A stretch of 31,707 nt of DNA from a virus (lineage: Duplodnaviria; Caudoviricetes): IMG/VR virus record IMGVR_UViG_3300025875_000079, positions 1-31,707 of that record; one strand, written 5' to 3'. Both the position numbers and the translations under genes were made by a program. Below, piece after piece: positions 3,840 to 31,707 of the stretch. The notes beneath the pieces were generated by a model. That model had not been told where the DNA came from. It searched no databases and saw only the letters and a program-made list of their open reading frames with translations. The stretch's first letter is position 1; each line of letters opens with the position of its first letter.

Positions 3840-3919
3840 ACGTGATGATTGAGTACGAAAACCATCAGGCGCACGTCCGCTACCGGCTGCGCCAGCAACA
3901 GGAGAAACAGAGGAAATGA
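3120..3919 (+). CDS. Putative tail assembly chaperone, -1 frameshift (GT-like) product, ~266 aa
   Basis: A -1 slip at T TTT TTT (3641-3649) joins to ...GQYERIRQ...VVDALASGDKTRW...QEKQRK*. The stop at 3917-3919 overlaps the next ATG. Confidence 0.7.
3641..3649 (+). other. Slippery T9 tract (programmed -1 frameshift candidate)
   Basis: GCT TTT TTT TTG in frame 0 fits the X XXY YYZ heptamer, and the -1 frame stays open for 90 codons. Confidence 0.7.
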
Positions 3920-4530
3920 CCGACATGGAATGCAGGATAGGCTACATCCTCCATAAGCTCAAAAAGGAATTCAACCAACCCGCCAACACGATGAATCTAT
4001 CTACCGCTCAACTTACGCTAAGGTCAGCACTATTTCTTGACTTAGACCACACCCTTATTCGCCCCAAGTCTGGCGAAACCTTTCCAAAGGATGCAGATGA
4101 CTGGGAGTTCATGCCCAAGATGCTCAATGCACTGTGGTATGACATTCACCACACTGAACGGCCTATTGTTATCGTCACCAACCAGGGTGGCGTACAGGCT
4201 GGCTATCATACGCAGGAAGAGATAGAAGCCAAGCTAACCAAGGTGGAAGCAGAGTTGGTCACGTTCCTGCGGGGAAACTTCGAATACAAATACCCTGTCG
4301 AGGTATACAGCTATGCGGCATATGCTGACAATTATTACCGCAAGCCGCTGCCCGGCATGGCCTATCAGGCGGCGTGTGAGATCGGGCTTGATCTGAGTAA
4401 GTCGCACATGATTGGAGACATGGAGTCTGACCGGCAGTTTGCCAAGAACGCAGGCATGAGCTTTCAGTATGTAGATAGTTATCTGGGTAATCTGAGTTAC
4501 ACGGCGCCTACGCGGGTGCGCCAAGGCTAG
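3916..4530 (+). CDS. HAD-IIIA phosphatase, polynucleotide 3'-phosphatase (PNK3P)/GmhB-like; alternative start ATG 3991
   Basis: Motifs LDLDHTLIRPKSGETFPKDADDWEF, VTNQGG, RKPLPGM and MIGDMESD. Confidence 0.88.
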   Translation: MTDMECRIGYILHKLKKEFNQPANTMNLSTAQLTLRSALFLDLDHTLIRPKSGETFPKDADDWEFMPKMLNALWYDIHHTERPIVIVTNQGGVQAGYHTQEEIEAKLTKVEAELVTFLRGNFEYKYPVEVYSYAAYADNYYRKPLPGMAYQAACEIGLDLSKSHMIGDMESDRQFAKNAGMSFQYVDSYLGNLSYTAPTRVRQG

Positions 4531-10514: not shown

Positions 10515-11591
10515 TTACTTGAAAGCGGCATGATACAGCCTGCCCGCGTACTTCATACAGCCAGCGCGATTCGGGTGCAGGCCATCCGCGTAGTCAGCTT
10601 CGCTATCTGTTAAAGCCAAGCCATCTACCAAGTGCACCCAGGTTCTAGCTGCTGCAATTTTACTGAGTGCCGCGCGCATAGGGGCTATGTTGCGCTCGTT
10701 ATACGAGTCGGTGCGAAAGGTCCGTAACGGCGTTTGTAGCGTGATAGGCAGGGTAGGCAATGTGCGGTGCAACTCGTCCAGAAACAGTGCTGCATAGCTC
10801 GCGGCCTGCGCTACGTTCTTGCCAGTGCCGGCGTCATTGTCGCCCAACTCCATGATATAGCGCGGGTGCTGCGAGCCTTTAACAACCTGCACGATACGCT
10901 GTACCATCGCGTGTCGTTTCGTGGCCGTTTCGTAGCTGGTGCTGAGCTGGCGGCGCCCAGCACCTAGACTAACGAACCGCATACCCGGCATGAGCTTGGC
11001 CAGCTGCGCTTGCACACCATCCCGCTGCGCTACGGGCGTTCCAATGCCGAGGCCGATACTATCCGTGTCTTCTAATACTACCTCTGCGGTAGTGTCGCGC
11101 ACAACGGTATAGCCGAAATTTCCTCCATAATCGGCGCTAATAAGGGATGTGCCAGCGTAAAAGCCCGGTATGGTTTCTTCCTGTAGTGCCTCTACCAAAG
11201 CTACCGTGTGCGGGCCTGGTTCGCCGCTCAGCTCAACTCGGATTTCCTCTTCCTCATTGGCCTCCTCCGGATTAGCCATGCCAACTAAGGCACCGTCAAC
11301 GAATACGGCAATGCCAACCTGAGAATCCGGGTACGTGTTGCCATATACTGTGGAATACAGTGTTATGTCCACATAGTCAGGCAATCCATCAGGAAAATGG
11401 TGCGCGATGCGTGCCAGCGCAGAACGATGGTGCGCCGCGGTTCCCGGCAGTATGTCATCGTAGATCGTGTTTTGGAAATCAGCCGACCTGGCAATGTACT
11501 CGTCTGTGATAGTGCTGGCGCCGTCGTTTTGCTCCTGTTGCGTGCAAGAGAATAACGCTGTAACGAATACGAATAGAATAAAATGCTTCAC
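10515..11591 (-). CDS. SGNH/GDSL hydrolase lipoprotein (moron), paralogue of the fibre esterase module
   Basis: GTG 11591 gives the signal MKHFILFVFVTALFS-C16. Catalytic motifs DTDSIG, LGDND and DGLHP; 358 aa. Confidence 0.85.
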   Translation of the reverse strand: MKHFILFVFVTALFSCTQQEQNDGASTITDEYIARSADFQNTIYDDILPGTAAHHRSALARIAHHFPDGLPDYVDITLYSTVYGNTYPDSQVGIAVFVDGALVGMANPEEANEEEEIRVELSGEPGPHTVALVEALQEETIPGFYAGTSLISADYGGNFGYTVVRDTTAEVVLEDTDSIGLGIGTPVAQRDGVQAQLAKLMPGMRFVSLGAGRRQLSTSYETATKRHAMVQRIVQVVKGSQHPRYIMELGDNDAGTGKNVAQAASYAALFLDELHRTLPTLPITLQTPLRTFRTDSYNERNIAPMRAALSKIAAARTWVHLVDGLALTDSEADYADGLHPNRAGCMKYAGRLYHAAFK

Positions 11592-11617
11592 GTGTAGAAG
11601 ATCTATAAAGTGAAGTA

Positions 11618-11650
11618 TAAAGGTACTACCAGCCAAATACTGCAACCAAA
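11618..11650 (-). promoter_or_regulatory. Putative host-type (-33/-7) promoter for the lipoprotein
   Basis: The minus strand reads TTTG-N21-TACCTTTA, versus the Bacteroidota consensus TTTG-N19-21-TAnnTTTG. Confidence 0.5.
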
Positions 11651-14651: not shown

Positions 14652-17600
14652 CTAGTGGTTGCTTTGGGCCTGGGCCCGCTTCTCGTTTTCGGCTATCCGG
14701 TTGAACTCCGTAGCGCGGATGGTAGGCGCGGGCAGGGCGCCAGCCCCGGCCACGAAGGCGGGCGTGAGTTCCTGGGCAAGCGTAGCTGCCAAAAGGCCGT
14801 AATCAATCTGGGCAGAAGGCCCACTGCTAAAGCCCGCCGGCCTCCGCATCTCGTCCATGGTAGCCGGGTCGTAGCGCACAATACCGCCCTGCGCGTAGTG
14901 GCGCGGAATAGCGGCTATGCGCTGTAAGCCCTGCGCGAACGGCCGGCCCCCAGCGGCCACGTTCAGCGCGGAAGCTGCGGCGCGTAGGGCAGGAATGCGG
15001 TAGACGTTACGGGTCAGGATAATTTCCTCATCCTCCATCTCGCCTACATAGTGGCCGGACTTGTGGTACATGGGAATGCCGCCCTCGCTGTGGCGCCGGC
15101 CCCGCACCACACCCCCTTCCGCAAACTTCTGGGCGGGCGTCTTACTTAGTGATGCTTTCAGGCCCGCCGTGGCAGCCGTGAGGCCGGCAATGATAAGGCC
15201 CGCCTTCACGAAGCCCGCGGCGCCAAACGTGGCCACCGATTCGGGTGAGGCTAGTGCTTCCGTTAGAATCTTCACCTGCGCCGCAATCACGGCCTTGCTG
15301 ATCGTATCCAGAATCAGCACCAGGGCTTTCGCCGCGAAGTCCTGCAGCTGCGCGCCCGTGTCGCTCATGGTATCGGCAAACAGCTGGCCCAGCTGCTCAC
15401 CGAAGCTGATGGCAGTGCTTAGCTGCTGCTGCTTCGCGGCCTGGTCCTTCTGCGTTACCTGATCAATATGCTGGATCTTCAGTTCGGTGAGTTGTTGATC
15501 AATGGCGGCCGTATCCTGCCCGTAGGCGCGGGCTATTGCCAGCTGAGCCGATAGCCGGCCGAGTTCCTGCTGGTAAAGCGTGTCGCTGTACTGCTGCTCC
15601 GTGACCAGGCCTTCCGCCCGCACCTGCTCCAGTTGGTTACGCTCCTGTTGGTAGAAGGTAGTCGCCGCCTCGCTGCGGTTGCGGTAGATCAGGTCGGTGT
15701 TCTGCTTATCGGCCTGAGCATTGATGAGCATCCGTTGCGCGGAGGCCACCTCGGCGTCTTCCCGGTCGTTGATGGCGGCTAGCTGCTGCTGGCGCTGCTT
15801 TTCTAGGGCCTGCTGCTGCAAGCGTAGCTCCTCATCACTGCCCGCTTTCACGGCCACCAGCCGGGCGGCAATCACGGCTGCTTCCTGCTGCAAGGAAGCG
15901 TTGATGCGCTGCCGGGTGTGCGTGGCCACCAGCTCATCCACATCGTTCTCGTACTTCTCGTCGATGAGCTTCTTCTGGCCTACGGTAATACCTTTCTGGG
16001 CTAGCTCAATCTTACGGCTGTTCTCCAGCTTTTTCGCTAGTAGCTGTAACTGCTCATCCGAGCCGTCCGGGGTTTTGCGTAGCTGCTGATCGAGTAGATC
16101 ATTCTGCAATTTGAGTTCGGCCCGCAGGTTAGCCAGGCGCTGCTCGGCCGCTTTCGCCGCGGCATCAGCACGGGCCTTGGCATCGGCCTTTTCCTTGTCG
16201 GCCGCGCCCTTCTGAATAGCATTGAGCTGGTTATTGAGTTCAATGCGGCGCGTGTTGCTGTCGCGCTCCAGCGCATACAGCTTGATCTTTTCCTGACTCA
16301 GCAATTCGTTATCCGCCGTCAGGTTGTTGGTCAGCGCCTGCTCGCGTTCGATGTTGGCAATCCGATCCTGTTGCAGCTGCTGTTGCCGGTCCGCACTCTT
16401 TTCCTCCAGCGCAAAGGCTTCGCGGCCCGCGGCCAGCCGTTCGGCCGTGCTCTTGCTGGTGTCCTGCTCAATGAGCTTCAGGGCTTCGATCTGCGCTTTG
16501 CTCTGCTCCCGCTCCTGATTTATTTCCCGCTCCAGATCCCGAATGCGCTGGCTTTCGGCCGCTATCTGCTCCCCCGCTTTGGCCGCGTTGCCAAGCTCCT
16601 GCGTGAACTTTTGGGCTTTGCTGGTCGCATCCGCAATACCGGTACTGGCCTGCAGGAAGCCGTCACCAATCTTGCGCGGATCCAGATTAATAATGCCGTC
16701 GACGATGACGCCAAACGCTTTGAGCCGGTTGAGTAGGTTTTCGCCAATTAAATCTACCAGGTCGGAAATGGCTTGCCGGGGATTGTCGAACGCCTTGAAT
16801 AGCACCTCGCCTACAGCACTGACCTTATCCGTGAGCACGCCCACTACCACGCCGAGGCCCTTGGTTTTGCGCTCCAGAAAGTCAATGCCGGTTTGCGTTT
16901 TCGTCAGGAAGGTAACCAGCGCGCTAAAGGCCAGTACCAATAGGCCAATACCGGTGGCAGCTAGCGCAATTTTAAGCAGCCCCAGCGCCCCTACTTCAGC
17001 CAGGGTAGCGGCCTTGGCCAGGTTCGTAACGGCTGTGAACTTCGTTTTGACTTCGTTGTACTGCCGCGTGGCGCCGCCCAGCACGCCAGTGGTGTCGGCT
17101 GCCTCTGCCAGCGCCGCACTAACCTTCTTGGTTTCGGCGGGCACCTCAGCCAGCGTTTTTTCCACCGCTGCAATCTGAAAGCCAATCTTGCGGAAGGCAT
17201 CCGAGCCCTCGGCTACGTTCTCCTGCTCCTTTTCCAGCCGCACCAGGTTCTCGATGGCGGGTTGAATCTTCGCCGTGTAGTCGACTACCTTCGCCTCAGC
17301 CTGCTCAAACGAGAGCCCCGCCTGCGCGCCGGCCTTCACGGCCGCCGTCTGAAAGCCGATGGCCCGCTTTTCCAGTACCTGGTAGCCCTCGCTATCCTGC
17401 TCCAGCCCCTTCTGCTGTTCCCGGATTTTGGCCAGCTCCACAATCAGCGGCTCCAGGCCCTGCTTAAAGCTAGCCGCGTAGTTGCCCACGTTGCGGCTAG
17501 TGGAGCCTACGCTACCCTCGATTTCCTTTAGTGCATCCGAGATGGCCAGGGCTTGCTTTTGCAGCGCCTGCCCCTCGGCAGTCTTACGCTCTGCCTCCGA

Positions 17601-17951
17601 CATGGCGTAGAAGGCCGTGGTGGTTTCGCTCAGCGCGCTGCGTAGCTGCTCAGCGGAGCCAGCCGATGACTTGAAGGTTTTATCCAGTGTTTCCAGCCCC
17701 TTCTCCAACTCCCGCTGGTCGGCCTGCTGGCCCTTTAGCTGCGCGCGCAGGGCCACAGCCTGCTTGGCGTACTCGGCATCGGCAATGGTGCCGGCCTTGC
17801 GCTGCTCGTTGAGCTGCTTTTGCCGGCCTTTCGTCTTGTCGATATCCAGCACCAGCGCGGCCAGCGAGTCGCGGATGAGCTTGGTTTCCTGCTTGTACTG
17901 CTCGTCATCGAGCCGGATTTCTAGTAGGATCTTTTCAGTCTGGTCAGCCAT
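14652..17951 (-). CDS. Tape measure protein
   Basis: 1099 aa, helical and A/E/K/Q-rich. RNVGNY motif, hydrophobic ALAATGIGLLVLA segment and C-terminal KFAEGGVV.G..H..GG motif. Confidence 0.92.
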   Translation of the reverse strand: MADQTEKILLEIRLDDEQYKQETKLIRDSLAALVLDIDKTKGRQKQLNEQRKAGTIADAEYAKQAVALRAQLKGQQADQRELEKGLETLDKTFKSSAGSAEQLRSALSETTTAFYAMSEAERKTAEGQALQKQALAISDALKEIEGSVGSTSRNVGNYAASFKQGLEPLIVELAKIREQQKGLEQDSEGYQVLEKRAIGFQTAAVKAGAQAGLSFEQAEAKVVDYTAKIQPAIENLVRLEKEQENVAEGSDAFRKIGFQIAAVEKTLAEVPAETKKVSAALAEAADTTGVLGGATRQYNEVKTKFTAVTNLAKAATLAEVGALGLLKIALAATGIGLLVLAFSALVTFLTKTQTGIDFLERKTKGLGVVVGVLTDKVSAVGEVLFKAFDNPRQAISDLVDLIGENLLNRLKAFGVIVDGIINLDPRKIGDGFLQASTGIADATSKAQKFTQELGNAAKAGEQIAAESQRIRDLEREINQEREQSKAQIEALKLIEQDTSKSTAERLAAGREAFALEEKSADRQQQLQQDRIANIEREQALTNNLTADNELLSQEKIKLYALERDSNTRRIELNNQLNAIQKGAADKEKADAKARADAAAKAAEQRLANLRAELKLQNDLLDQQLRKTPDGSDEQLQLLAKKLENSRKIELAQKGITVGQKKLIDEKYENDVDELVATHTRQRINASLQQEAAVIAARLVAVKAGSDEELRLQQQALEKQRQQQLAAINDREDAEVASAQRMLINAQADKQNTDLIYRNRSEAATTFYQQERNQLEQVRAEGLVTEQQYSDTLYQQELGRLSAQLAIARAYGQDTAAIDQQLTELKIQHIDQVTQKDQAAKQQQLSTAISFGEQLGQLFADTMSDTGAQLQDFAAKALVLILDTISKAVIAAQVKILTEALASPESVATFGAAGFVKAGLIIAGLTAATAGLKASLSKTPAQKFAEGGVVRGRRHSEGGIPMYHKSGHYVGEMEDEEIILTRNVYRIPALRAAASALNVAAGGRPFAQGLQRIAAIPRHYAQGGIVRYDPATMDEMRRPAGFSSGPSAQIDYGLLAATLAQELTPAFVAGAGALPAPTIRATEFNRIAENEKRAQAQSNH

Positions 17952-27217: not shown

Positions 27218-27248
27218 CTTGCTATGCCAAGAATATGTGTTATATTTG
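27218..27248 (+). promoter_or_regulatory. Host-type Bacteroidota sigma70 promoter
   Basis: CTTG-N19-TATATTTG (perfect TAnnTTTG) with an AT-rich upstream tract. Confidence 0.75.
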
Positions 27249-27277
27249 TATATACTCTAACAGCAAGTATTACCGCC

Positions 27278-27688
27278 ATGTGCCAGTCTACTACCGCCGC
27301 CCCCGCCAAACGCACACAGGGAATGAACTGGCTGAGTCAACATAAAAGACTGGCTATTTACCTGCGCGACGGTTTATGCTGCGCGTACTGCGGCGCATCG
27401 GTAGAGCAGGGCACCAAGTTAACCCTCGACCACCTGACGCCCTACTCGCTGGGCGGTTCGAACAAAGAAACCAACTTGGTTACTTGCTGCCTGTCTTGCA
27501 ACTCCGCTCGTGGCAACCGCGACGTGAAATCCTTCGCCGAGGGAGTCGCCGCCTACAAAGGCATCGAGGCTGGCGACATTCTCAAAGGCATCCGTAACCG
27601 CATTCGCCGGGTGCTGCCCTTGGCTGAAGCGAAGATGCTGGTTGCCCGTCGTGGCTCGTGTGCCAAGGCGATTGCCGAACTGAACTAA
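27278..27688 (+). CDS. HNH endonuclease (zinc-binding type)
   Basis: RDGLCCAYCG...LTLDHLTP...GGSN...NLVTCCLSCN. ATG 27278 lies downstream of the promoter; 136 aa. Confidence 0.9.
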   Translation: MCQSTTAAPAKRTQGMNWLSQHKRLAIYLRDGLCCAYCGASVEQGTKLTLDHLTPYSLGGSNKETNLVTCCLSCNSARGNRDVKSFAEGVAAYKGIEAGDILKGIRNRIRRVLPLAEAKMLVARRGSCAKAIAELN

Positions 27689-28905: not shown

Positions 28906-28941
28906 AAAAGGCCCCTACCCGCAACGGTAGGGGCCTTTTTT
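28906..28941. terminator. Bidirectional intrinsic terminator
   Basis: AAAAGGCCCCTACC-CGCAAC-GGTAGGGGCCTTTT(TT). Confidence 0.9.
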
Positions 28942-28995
28942 GTGAATACTCTTCAGAAATGAAGACTTTTTTTAATTAAAAATATAATTAAAAAA

Positions 28996-29078
28996 CTACC
29001 CCGCCGCTTTCAAGTGCTCCGTAAATTCCGTCAGGAACGGCCGGCGCGAAGCCGTGATGCCCATGGTGGCCGCGCCTA
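28996..29078 (-). pseudogene. Displaced original 3' end of the integrase gene
   Basis: Translates GAATMGITASRRPFLTEFTEHLKAAG*, 14/26 identical without gaps to the integrase tail GAETLGIKSVVRPFLQVFSEQLKESG. Confidence 0.8.
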
Positions 29079-29828
29079 CTGATTGGCTAAGCGCAGTAAA
29101 ATATCCGCATGACAGGGGTTGTCAAGGCTACAGAAGCAGGCTAAGTTTTTGCCGCGTAGCGCCGCAAGCCAATCGGGATCAGCAGCCAGCTTTTCTTGTG
29201 CATAAATCTTGAACCGTTCTACAGCCTCAGTATAAGCGGCCGCAGGCGTCCGTCCGTACTCAGGCTTTTCTACTGGATAGGGGTTACCCCACTTGCCCGG
29301 CCGGCAGACAGACACAGTATTGGCGGGCATCTTGAAGCCCTTTGCCCGACGGCGCTGAATGCGTATTGGTGTGGTAGGCTCTACTTCTGGCATAATATCT
29401 TTTCGTTTACCAAGTCGGTTTTGGCGTTGGCTTTCGCTTGCACACGGGCGACAATACCACCTGCCTGATTCAGTATAGCGTGAATTCTCTTCATTTCTTT
29501 CGTGTCCCTTTGCACAGGTTTTGTTTTGCTGCCTAGGGGCCCTTCCTTTTCTAGAGCAATCCATCATGTTCTCCTTTTGGGTGCCAGCAAAAAGATGGTT
29601 AGGGTTTACACAGCTAGGCACGTCACACTTGTGACAAATAAACAAGCCCGCTGGAATGGCGCCATTGTGAAGCTCGAAGCTAAAGCGGTGTGCTAAACGG
29701 TTTTTACAGTCCACCCCTAATGATCCATATCCATTCGGATCACGATAGCCAGTCCACAACCAGCATGCATCTGTCTTATTAACCCTGGACCAAAACCTTT
29801 CTTCTGCGGTTGCGAGCTTGCTAGCCAT
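29076..29828 (-). CDS. HNH homing-type endonuclease fused to a DUF4326-like domain
   Basis: CWLWTG...GYG...LAHR...ICHKCDVPSCVNPNHL...N; C..GH...CRPC; then RIQRRR...RPGKWGNPY...LRGKNLACFC....CHADILL. Confidence 0.88.
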   Translation of the reverse strand: MASKLATAEERFWSRVNKTDACWLWTGYRDPNGYGSLGVDCKNRLAHRFSFELHNGAIPAGLFICHKCDVPSCVNPNHLFAGTQKENMMDCSRKGRAPRQQNKTCAKGHERNEENSRYTESGRWYCRPCASESQRQNRLGKRKDIMPEVEPTTPIRIQRRRAKGFKMPANTVSVCRPGKWGNPYPVEKPEYGRTPAAAYTEAVERFKIYAQEKLAADPDWLAALRGKNLACFCSLDNPCHADILLRLANQ

Positions 29829-29835
29829 TATGCTT

Positions 29836-29873
29836 TATCTTTGCGGTGTAACATACCACAAAGATACCGCAAA
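29836..29873. promoter_or_regulatory. Face-to-face -7 promoter elements and putative RHH operator
   Basis: TATCTTTG (+, 29836-29843) and CAAAGATA (-, 29859-29866) lie within a 12/14 inverted repeat. AYACCRCAAA boxes at 29840-29849 (inverted), 29853 and 29864. Confidence 0.7.
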
Positions 29874-29887
29874 TAGACCGGAATGCA

Positions 29888-30064
29888 ATGGCAACACAAC
29901 GTAAAAAAACTTCATTTACTATCTCGCAACTAGCTGATAATCTACTGGCTGCCCTTTCTGATAAAAACGACAGATCAAAAGCCTCTATGCTGGAAGTGCT
30001 GATTAAAGAAGAGGCCAACAGGCAGGGTATTACGCTGTCTTTAAAAGAGCCCCCGACTCTTTAA
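29888..30064 (+). CDS. Ribbon-helix-helix (CopG/Arc-like) protein (absent from the ORF track)
   Basis: 58 aa MATQRKKTSFTISQLADNLLAALSDKNDRSKASMLEVLIKEEANRQGITLSLKEPPTL, a beta-strand plus two helices pattern. Confidence 0.75.
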   Translation: MATQRKKTSFTISQLADNLLAALSDKNDRSKASMLEVLIKEEANRQGITLSLKEPPTL

Positions 30065-31370
30065 GTTGTTCACTAAACACCTGTAAAAAGGGTCGGACTA
30101 CACTCTTAATGCCTAGCGTTTCGGCGCCTAGGCATTTGCTCATTTCGTTGGTGACGGTTTCGGCTAGCACCTGCGCGTAGCTTTTTTCGGTGACGGTAAT
30201 GGAGCGATGCCCCAGTACCCGCGACACAATGGTAATGGGCACGCCATCCTGTAGCAGAATCATGCCGGCGGTCTTACGGCCTACGTGCGTGGTCAGATGC
30301 TTTTCCATGCCCAGCATCGAAGCAATCTGCTTCAGGTGGCTGTTGAACTTTTGGTTGCTGAGCACGGGTAGCTGCTCGCCACCGTAGCGGGCCAGGATAT
30401 CGGCCGCGGGCTTGAGTAGCGGCACAATAGCCGTGGTGCCGGTCTTTTGGCGCTGGATAACCAGGCGAATGGAGCCATCGCGTTGCGGCAGCAGGTGCCG
30501 AGAGCCGCGAAACTCGTACAAGTCGCGCCACGCCAGGCCCGTAAAGCAGGCGAAGGCAAAGCAATCCGCTACCCGCCGCAGGGCGGGGGAGGCAAACGGG
30601 TAGTTCCACAGCCGCACCAGCTCGACGGGCGTTAGGAATACCAGATCATCCGGCGGATCCAGCCGGGGGCGAAACTCGGCCAGTGGGTTCGACTCCAGCA
30701 GCTCGCGCTTCACGCACCAGCCCAGCAGCATCTTATACGTCTGCACGACTTTGAGCGCGTAGTTTTTCTTGCGGCCCTGCGCCCGCATCCACTGCACGAA
30801 CTGCTCAGCGCGCACCACCCGAAACTCGCGGGGCCGAATTTCCAGCAGCCCCACGTCGCGTAGCCAGTTTTCCAGCAGCCCGCGGCGCACGCGGTCCGCC
30901 GTGACGCTCTCGGGGCTGAGCTGCCCGCGCACGGCCAGCTGAATGCGCTCGGCTATGAACTCGTCGAACACGCGGATCAGCGCCGCTTGCCGGGCCTGGG
31001 GCTTCTGGTACTGAAGCACCACCCGCTCGGGCGTGATGTACACGCCTTCGCTCTGCAAGTCGTTGAAGGCGTTGGTGAGGCCGGCCTTGATATTTTCCAG
31101 CGTGGCCTTCTCGGCTTTAACCTGCGCCGAACGGCCGCGTATTTCCTGCGCCTTGGCGTCCCAGCTACCCTTGGTGGTGTACACGCCGGTAGCAAAATCG
31201 AAGTCGGCGCCGTCCACCGTCACGCGGGCCGTGATGGTGCCGGGGCGGCTGGGCAGGGCCTCGTCTTTTAGAACCCCGCCGTGGGCGGCGCGGTTGGCCT
31301 TGGCTTCCTTGAGGGTAAGGGGCGCTTTTCTAAACCAGAATCGAACGCGCATATGGTGTCGTAATTTCAT
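30030..31370 (-). CDS. int: Tyrosine integrase, Bacteroidota IntDOT-like
   Basis: Arm-binding-type N-terminus (ARVTVDG...FATG), FTGLAWRDL, RQKTG, HVGRKT and LGH...TEKSYA. ATG 31370 preferred; 446 aa. Confidence 0.95.
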   Translation of the reverse strand: MKLRHHMRVRFWFRKAPLTLKEAKANRAAHGGVLKDEALPSRPGTITARVTVDGADFDFATGVYTTKGSWDAKAQEIRGRSAQVKAEKATLENIKAGLTNAFNDLQSEGVYITPERVVLQYQKPQARQAALIRVFDEFIAERIQLAVRGQLSPESVTADRVRRGLLENWLRDVGLLEIRPREFRVVRAEQFVQWMRAQGRKKNYALKVVQTYKMLLGWCVKRELLESNPLAEFRPRLDPPDDLVFLTPVELVRLWNYPFASPALRRVADCFAFACFTGLAWRDLYEFRGSRHLLPQRDGSIRLVIQRQKTGTTAIVPLLKPAADILARYGGEQLPVLSNQKFNSHLKQIASMLGMEKHLTTHVGRKTAGMILLQDGVPITIVSRVLGHRSITVTEKSYAQVLAETVTNEMSKCLGAETLGIKSVVRPFLQVFSEQLKESGALLKTA

Positions 31371-31412
31371 AGCAGTTTGCCTAATAAGGTTAGTAATGTA
31401 CACTAACCTACG

Positions 31413-31487
31413 TGGCAAACCGCTTGTAACGGATACGTTGTAACTGAAACTTTCTGTTGCAACTGGCCTTGCAACGAGTTGGCAAAC
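31413..31487. repeat. Cluster of putative integrase arm-type sites
   Basis: TTGYAAC at 31424, 31438, 31457 and 31469; TGGCAAAC at 31413 and 31480; a similar pair at 31656-31675. Confidence 0.6.
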
Positions 31488-31531
31488 GCCCGGGCGGGGC
31501 CAAAAAAGCGGCTGGCGGGGCCTGGAAACGC

Positions 31532-31561
31532 AAAACGCCAGCCCGGTGGGGGGCTGGCGTT
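31532..31561 (-). terminator. Terminator downstream of the tRNA 3' fragment
   Basis: Minus strand AACGCCAGCCC-N6-GGGCTGGCGTTTT. Confidence 0.65.
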
Positions 31562-31582
31562 AGCTGCAAGAAACGCAGGTTG

Positions 31583-31606
31583 CAGAGGAGGAGGGATTCG
31601 AACCCC
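31583..31606 (-). other. att core: 3' fragment of a tRNA (T-arm, acceptor strand and discriminator G; probably tRNA-Ser)
   Basis: Minus strand GGGGTTCGAATCCCTCCTCCTCTG, with no tRNA 5' half upstream. Confidence 0.85.
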
Positions 31607-31707
31607 GCACTCTAACTACTTGGTTTCTTGCAGATTGCCAGCCGGCAAAGGGACATTGTAAGTAAAGTGGTAAACAACACCCCCGTTGCGGGCCCGCTGC
31701 GGACAAC

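Follow-up and report, generated by a model that had tools for sequence, protein, structure and literature searches.

A candidate splicing-free homing cassette that replaces the C-terminal end of a temperate phage integrase

The viral DNA recorded as IMGVR_UViG_3300025875_000079 (Duplodnaviria; Caudoviricetes), analysed over its full 31,707 nucleotides and called here the window, is a partial temperate phage genome in which terminase, head protease, portal, endolysin and integrase genes are recognised. Its tyrosine integrase gene is interrupted near the 3' end by a cassette that encodes a predicted HNH nuclease fused to a DUF4326 domain and a small, divergently oriented open reading frame (ORF) resembling ribbon-helix-helix (RHH) proteins, and that supplies the integrase with a different C-terminus; the original C-terminus lies stranded beyond the nuclease gene. 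The features of the locus, by position in the window, are the following.

30030..31370, minus strand: tyrosine integrase, the host gene (446 amino acids; Pfam Phage_integrase and Arm-DNA-bind_5)
29079..30130, minus strand: inserted cassette (1,052 bp, G+C content 0.48), spanned by one unitig
30030..30130, minus strand: replacement, and expressed, integrase C-terminus (33 codons and stop; AT-richer third positions)
30124..30130, minus strand: integrase-side junction 7-mer (GCGCCTA/TAGGCGC)
29888..30064, plus strand: 58-amino-acid RHH-like ORF encoding a predicted repressor; divergent with respect to the HNH gene, with a 35-bp overlap with the integrase end
29829..29887, no strand assigned: predicted operator spacer (back-to-back TAnnTTTG motifs, an inverted repeat with 17-bp arms, TGYGGTA repeats 11 bp apart)
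29076..29828, minus strand: 250-amino-acid HNH ORF (HNH_3 at residues 44-89, a zinc knuckle, DUF4326 at residues 161-245; stop within the junction)
29072..29078, minus strand: orphan-side junction 7-mer, whose TAG is the stop of the HNH ORF
28996..29078, minus strand: displaced original integrase 3' end (26 codons and stop, still open), a predicted downstream homology arm
28906..28939, no strand assigned: perfect 14-bp hairpin downstream of the old integrase stop

Read in the direction of the integrase, the insert consists of the new tail, the opposite-strand 58-amino-acid ORF, the 59-bp spacer and the HNH ORF; it is filled by ORFs, and its G+C content compares with 0.63 in the integrase body. 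Deletion of 29079-30130 leaves a single open integrase frame with its stop at 28996, and the frame as it stands closes inside the insert, so that neither RNA nor protein splicing is needed. A first, sequence-only reading of this DNA had placed GCGCCTA at 29072 and 30124, had noted that removal of the intervening stretch restores the integrase frame, and had described an intron-less HNH insert with a replacement C-terminus; all of this is confirmed, and no intron signature is present. The 7-mer occurs 14 times in the window, and five of its seven bases belong to Gly-Ala codons common to both tails. Pfam and PHROG family searches detected no recombinase in the insert, a search for inverted repeats found none flanking the junctions, and a tail-profile search of the whole window returned this single orphan tail, with neither a second one nor a tandem cluster. 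The same reading depended on the continuity of the junctions, which is borne out: in run X1, which possibly represents the source sample, a Logan unitig spans 28999-31606 and both junctions with 0 differences, and a piece from a second sample, X3, covers 29038-29210 and bridges the orphan-side junction. The X1 unitigs end at 28997 and resume at 28999, as they would if a single base, 28998, which opens the orphan stop codon, were variable. A perfect 11-bp inverted repeat of A and T only (28968-28995) follows immediately after the old integrase stop, and the hairpin at 28906..28939 is likely to be the original integrase terminator (the terminator scan did not call it).

Aligned without gaps, the expressed and orphan tails are identical at 14 of 26 amino acids and at 46 of 78 nucleotides (59%), and nine of the 14 shared residues use different codons. 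A profile built from 20 homologue tails, with the window's own rows and P0022 left out, scores the expressed tail at 47.2 bits and the orphan at 44.8 bits, versus 7.2 bits for the best unrelated of 13,342 six-frame fragments, which indicates that the resemblance of the orphan is not due to chance. G or C occupies 21 of 25 third positions in the orphan, 313 of 398 in the integrase body and 12 of 26 in the expressed tail (Fisher p = 0.62 for orphan versus body and 0.0005 for expressed tail versus body); the body-like codons of the orphan, the insert-like ones of the expressed tail and the degree of identity had been noted before and were recovered here. When the two tails are scored against individual homologues, the orphan outscores the expressed tail in 18 of 20 cases, with one tie and one loss, and the expressed tail has lost a Glu that is kept in 19/19 homologues (P0007, which has a gap, excluded). 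Its body-like codons, its higher scores against homologues, its retention of the Glu and the hairpin after its stop together identify the orphan as the displaced original end of the integrase and the expressed tail as the newcomer, in agreement with the earlier proposal. Over the first 22 tail positions the two differ at 12, and at 10 of these the new residue is found in natural homologues; on this evidence the new tail appears to have been captured from a divergent allele, which makes the earlier description of it as recoded in place doubtful. The still open, body-like old tail would fit a recent insertion or renewal by homing. The insertion point, L414/G415, lies 16 codons past the catalytic Tyr, and residues R265, K309, H362, R365, H388 and Y398, which we take to be the catalytic ones, are invariant in the alignment and all lie upstream of it. 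The tail motif is conserved within the close clade of the integrase alignment, and a replacement tail is thus plausibly needed.

The nuclease moiety of the HNH ORF carries residues of a His-Cys-box-like pattern (C22, H66, C68, C73, H78 and N87), followed by a zinc knuckle (C105, H109, C126 and C129). In a profile search with the HNH family the only PDB matches were chains of I-PpoI, at weak E-values of 0.027-0.058, and a structure model, in which the DUF4326 part is of low confidence and barely covered by the alignment, gave I-PpoI and I-HmuI as top fold matches, again weak (E = 0.011-0.015). H66, C68/C73/H78 and N87 nevertheless align with I-PpoI, and the catalytic motif is intact, although the overall match is weak; presumably they serve as the general-base His, the C-C-H zinc site and the metal-binding Asn, respectively. 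SMAD MH1 domains on GGCGC sites also appeared in the fold search and the junction holds GGCGC, a correspondence that we treated as coincidence. The DUF4326 domain is complete, with a possible start of its own at Met146 (29393), and its fusion to HNH is unique among the top 120 HNH matches and 12 long DUF4326 matches. In a published paper the domain is proposed to process ADP-ribose-derived signals in viruses (PMC9503650). Annotated phages hold 367 records of HNH relatives, all less than 60% identical.

The sequence-only reading had missed the ORF at 29888-30064 together with its promoter- and operator-like spacer. The product of this ORF has no Pfam, PHROG or NCBIfam match; its Atlas feature matches, at 0.92-0.93, are to clusters with RHH/Arc/CopG members. 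Its sole homologue among 274 family genomes (49% identity over 37 amino acids) lies at locus L119, again divergent from an HNH gene, and that HNH is the nearest relative of the window HNH, at 50% identity; no homologue was found in viral contigs. In both the window and L119, the spacer contains TGYGGTA repeats spaced by 11 bp and, in inverted orientation, a further copy or near-copy. The TAnnTTTG motif, which we take to be the Bacteroidetes -7 promoter motif, has counterparts upstream of four of the five other HNH genes checked, the L119 HNH not being among the four. At L121:1192-1500 a different small ORF, with weak Pfam matches only, is divergent from the HNH gene, possibly in another controlled cassette.

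A search of 165 genus and 274 family genomes yielded 19 related HNH loci in 17 genomes. A gene end duplicated across the HNH gene was found at three of the 19 (L116, L120 and L122), versus none of 63 control anchors (Fisher p = 0.011), in two tests that are close, not identical, the HNH loci having been judged by eye and the control script having dropped matches that overlapped the anchor or contained stops. The control threshold was at least 45% identity and at least 35 bits, and two control anchors passed 35 bits at lower identity. The interrupted gene at L116, a prophage of H. lapidarius, is a TIGR02594 lysin-like gene with a 48-residue duplicated tail (69% identical) and an inverted HNH gene; at L122 it is a second, distant tyrosine integrase with a 22-residue duplicated tail (64%) that begins at the position of the catalytic Tyr; at L120 it is the 5' end that is duplicated (27 residues, 78%), in a gene without a family match. 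The fourth case, L119, was missed by the duplicated-end test and holds its RHH-HNH pair inside the end of a small unknown gene: two uninterrupted relatives agree with the stretch of 24 codons beyond the HNH stop at 14/24 and 13/24 positions, and with the expressed end at 5/24. Uninterrupted relatives were found for all four of these targets; that of the L122 integrase is 69% identical and agrees with the orphan at 14/22 positions versus 12/22 for the expressed tail, and the L120 gene is single copy in 14/14 relative loci fetched. In the window, L119 and L122, the three cases in which a same-strand HNH gene sits at a 3' end, the stop codon of the HNH ORF marks the downstream junction, and the motif of His, zinc site and Asn is kept in 5/5 in-gene HNHs versus 10/15 others. 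None of the other four cassettes contains DUF4326.

The other four junctions share just 2-4 bases and no sequence is common to all five loci, from which it follows that neither the 7-mer nor integrase genes define the family. The suggestion of the sequence-only reading that the element targets phage integrases is not supported: besides a distant integrase, the genes occupied by related elements are a lysin, a small unknown gene and one that is entered at its 5' end. Nor is TAGGCGC a shared target, the 7-mer being absent from the other four junctions. The view of the insert as a selfish element is, in turn, strengthened by its counterparts at four related prophage loci, for all of which uninterrupted relatives exist. 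Some further observations on these loci may be recorded. A strong self-match at L126 was not counted, since it reflects zinc-knuckle repeats inside the HNH ORF, and a weak one at L119 was set aside likewise. HNH relatives of about 400 amino acids are encoded at L126:844-2052, with several near-identical zinc-knuckle repeats, and at L141:1333-2523. The HNH at L122:1477-2232 has a long C-terminal extension (no Pfam match) that reaches the junction, as DUF4326 does in the window. The expressed end at L119:1074-1202 bears no relation to the old end and was perhaps brought along from an earlier target.

Taken together, these data suggest that the insert is probably a splicing-free homing cassette that works like the WHO elements of yeast and is built on an HNH nuclease. 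When two related phages or prophages share a cell, the HNH protein would cut or nick integrase alleles without the cassette near L414/G415. Repair of the break from the occupied allele would rely on homology to the integrase body on the upstream side and to the stranded old tail on the downstream side, and the recipient allele would gain both cassette and new tail. Being only 59% identical in DNA to the old tail, the new one would be spared from cutting, and the same divergence would keep the cassette from looping out; immunity of the occupied allele to its own nuclease is plausible on these grounds. By binding to the repeats that lie between the two divergent promoters, the RHH protein would hold the nuclease low in the lysogen. 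As to origin, a free-standing RHH-HNH pair beside a divergent integrase may have cut a relative; homologous repair would then have closed one end, and a join through short homology at the HNH stop the other, with DUF4326 carried along. A broader proposal, which we advance tentatively as a possibility, is that homing elements of a third class occur in temperate phages of Bacteroidota: RHH-HNH cassettes that repress themselves, need no splicing and replace either end of essential genes. They would be silent during lysogeny and act against a relative that superinfects or resides in the same cell, swapping integrase C-terminal tails between phages and taking neighbours such as DUF4326 as cargo.

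Several observations weigh against homing. A close empty allele, which the sequence-only reading would have expected among relatives, was not found: nothing close came up when viral contigs were queried with the integrase, when viral, genome and metagenome contigs were queried with its alignment, or in searches with an orphan 22-mer and with a downstream gene, and the most similar integrase shares 62% identity. No empty-allele or circle joint is listed in runs X1-X3, of which X2 and X3 provide scattered pieces only, making absence there uninformative. Nor does other cargo occupy the same junction, a further expectation of that reading, at seven distinct close-clade integrase loci followed for 2.4-6 kb downstream, each with one tail; and no orphan tail lies within about 1.4 kb in 30 loci of 97 integrase matches, the matches there being tandem full paralogues. 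Each cassette has been seen once, with no second copy found, so that spread is not established. The structural matches of the HNH are weak (E about 0.01-0.06). No duplicated end is present at 15 of the 19 related HNH loci, nor at 8/8 viral HNH loci, and L119 reads as an in-gene insertion without homologous replacement, its expressed end showing no homology to the old end. The codon polarity at L122 is reversed (G/C at 16/20 third positions in the expressed tail and at 9/21 in the orphan), and both copies at L120 are AT-richer than the gene body. The lysin orphan is nearer to relatives only over its first 14 residues (11 vs 9; 11 vs 8), and over 43 residues two relatives are split between orphan and expressed end. 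The in-gene HNHs, moreover, do not form a clade, one side of a branch occurring in 0% of bootstrap trees in a tree that is poorly resolved; the end-replacing layout may therefore have several origins instead of being the mark of a single family. At L162, L175 and L176, Hymenobacteraceae genomes carry two full-length paralogous tyrosine integrase genes in tandem.

The main alternative to homing, which we regard as unlikely, is a one-off recombination scar, in which divergent-phage DNA comprising an integrase end, RHH, HNH and DUF4326 was joined by homology on one side and illegitimately on the other, the HNH being a passenger or a single-use cutter. It accounts for the occurrence of the new-tail residues in other homologues, for the completeness of DUF4326, which with a possible start of its own resembles an adjacent gene taken along, in a fusion unique among the matches examined, and for the fact that every cassette is a singleton; the discussion of lysin A by Pope et al. 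(PMC3706429) explains a new lysin 3' end beside an HNH gene in just this way. By itself it does not account for the in-register start of displaced and new pieces in five loci, the enrichment of duplicated ends beside HNH genes (3/19 vs 0/63), and the intact nuclease motifs together with an old tail that is still open and has body-like codons. Tyrosine recombinases usually have an overlap of 7 bp, and the 7-bp direct repeat at both junctions, with integrase genes making up two of the five targets, could accordingly be attributed to a recombinase-less mini-element integrated in trans at a 7-bp core and restoring the gene end as e14 does. We find this improbable, as five of the seven bases are the conserved Gly-Ala codons, the other four junctions have 2-4 shared bases and no common sequence, there is no flanking inverted repeat, and no circular or empty joint is listed in three runs.

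It is also conceivable, though very improbable, that the cassette is kept for its cargo, either for a counter-defence role of DUF4326 or because RHH and nuclease form an addiction or exclusion pair, and that its position in the integrase end is incidental. The processing of viral ADP-ribose-derived signals proposed for DUF4326 in that paper (PMC9503650), and the antitoxin-type clusters among the RHH look-alikes, are in keeping with such a role; the lack of DUF4326 in the other four cassettes is not, and the duplicated ends would still have to be explained. An assembly chimera or a group I intron is hardly credible. What can be said for such a reading is that the contig is of metagenomic origin and that X1 may be the sample it came from. 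Against it, both junctions lie on a single unitig that shows 0 differences, and one of them is bridged by a second sample as well; for an intron, none of eight registers gives a U before the insert and a G at its end, there is no Rfam match, and the insert is filled by ORFs. A homing cassette remains the reading that we prefer.

The named homologues of the window integrase are Hymenobacter integrases (59-62% identity). A 20-residue insertion in its N-terminal arm-binding region (about 31320-31260, minus strand) is seen in none of 20 homologues covering that region. The attachment (att) core lies upstream of the gene:

31580-31606, minus strand: att core, the 27-bp 3' end of tRNA-Ser(TGA), in an attP-like arrangement with no tRNA on its 5' side

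A tRNA-Ser(TGA) stands directly upstream of the integrase in 5/6 related loci scanned. The X1 unitigs branch at both ends of the att core (31577-31610), and the attP-type path has a depth of 14.2 versus 29.5 for the integrase arm; the roughly half depth of this path suggests that excised and integrated forms of the phage coexist and hence that the integrase works (the alternative unitig paths were not displayed). Elsewhere in the window, a second HNH gene of another family (HNH_5/HNH; 27224-27688, plus strand) lies between the lysis region and two small HTH genes, and no duplicated end stood out nearby. A 1,099-residue ORF without Pfam or PHROG match (14652-17951, minus strand) and a GDSL lipase gene (10515-11645, minus strand) oppose the direction of the structural genes, and a PNK3P-like phosphatase gene (3916-4530, plus strand) is found near the terminase.

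The location of four of the 19 related prophage HNH loci, and of the window cassette, inside gene ends suggests that the strategy is common in phages, where it would be hidden because annotation shows an intact gene beside an HNH gene. It would be one concrete way in which integrase and lysin genes become mosaic at their termini, and the small cassettes provide cut sites predicted to the base together with a candidate repressor-operator pair. The principle of end-replacing homing is already known; new here are a frequency measured against a control, uninterrupted relatives for four targets, replacement of either end, two integrase targets and a candidate repressor-operator.

Among systems already described, integrative elements of the e14 type, which at icd restore the 3' end of their target gene, resemble the window insert in supplying a 3' end and displacing the old one; they differ in that the window insert lacks a recombinase and the five loci share no att core. 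Endonuclease insertions that bring a foreign C-terminus are known in Allomyces atp6, Ophiostoma rps3 and Phlebia atp6/cox2 (PMC4019555). As there described, these fungal mitochondrial insertions lie near the stop codon, provide an alternative C-terminus and displace the old one, so that the parallel drawn in the earlier reading is supported; they differ in their organelle context and in having no divergent repressor in that description. Their nucleases belong to other families. The 'intronless homing' of the T4 mob and seg genes, as presented in the relevant part of the source (PMC2988022), likewise involves an HNH or GIY-YIG nuclease with a separate C-terminal domain, outside any intron or intein. 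Those genes occupy intergenic positions, and their products act at sites hundreds to thousands of bases distant, whereas the window HNH gene sits inside a coding end. The end-replacing layout does not appear in the passages on T4-like phages in PMC2988022 and PMC10448857. In mycobacteriophage Omega the insertion of the HNH gene gp51 at lysin A is reported to have given lysin A a new 3' end (PMC3706429), and a likely origin of the window cassette, a cut by a free-standing HNH followed by homology on one side and a short join on the other, is of the kind which that paper suggests for lysin A. Like the window protein, gp51 as described has an N-terminal nuclease and a C-terminal zinc or other domain and is encoded outside any intron; Omega, however, lost 35 bp of its target, while the window keeps the old end in register as a possible homology arm. 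In the literature searched, from which most subscription papers were absent, no phage element keeping the old end along with a homologous new one was found, nor an RHH protein joined to a free-standing homing endonuclease.

The closest match is with the WHO elements at yeast FBA1, in which, by the account of Coughlan et al. 2020 (PMC7282813), the replacement end gives resistance and the stranded end serves as a second homology arm. As far as the relevant sections of two papers describe them (PMC7282813; 10.64898/2026.08.13.744650), a nuclease gene in WHO elements separates the host gene, kept at full length by a replacement 3' end, from a stranded fragment of the old 3' end, as in the window, and these elements share with the cassette family the absence of splicing and independent transcription in either orientation; from the common arrangement we infer the same kind of homing for the window cassette, between co-resident phages. 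In those accounts WHO elements encode an intein-derived LAGLIDADG-zinc finger nuclease in yeast, target FBA1, replace half a gene and form tandem clusters; here the nuclease is HNH/His-Cys-box-like and of phage, the target genes are many, one of them entered via its 5' end, 22-49 codons are replaced and no clusters are formed. A predicted repressor is on board the window cassette and not WHO elements as described, and cleavage is here a prediction. By nuclease family, target and clustering the window cassette is thus, on our analysis, not a member of the WHO group, and it would nonetheless work like one. In a preprint, Osborne et al. 2026 (10.64898/2026.08.13.744650) treat end-replacing homing elements as a third category, 'considerably more rare' than introns and inteins. 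With related cassettes inside four other prophage genes, the window cassette is likely to represent the phage counterpart of these splicing-free selfish homing elements of yeast.

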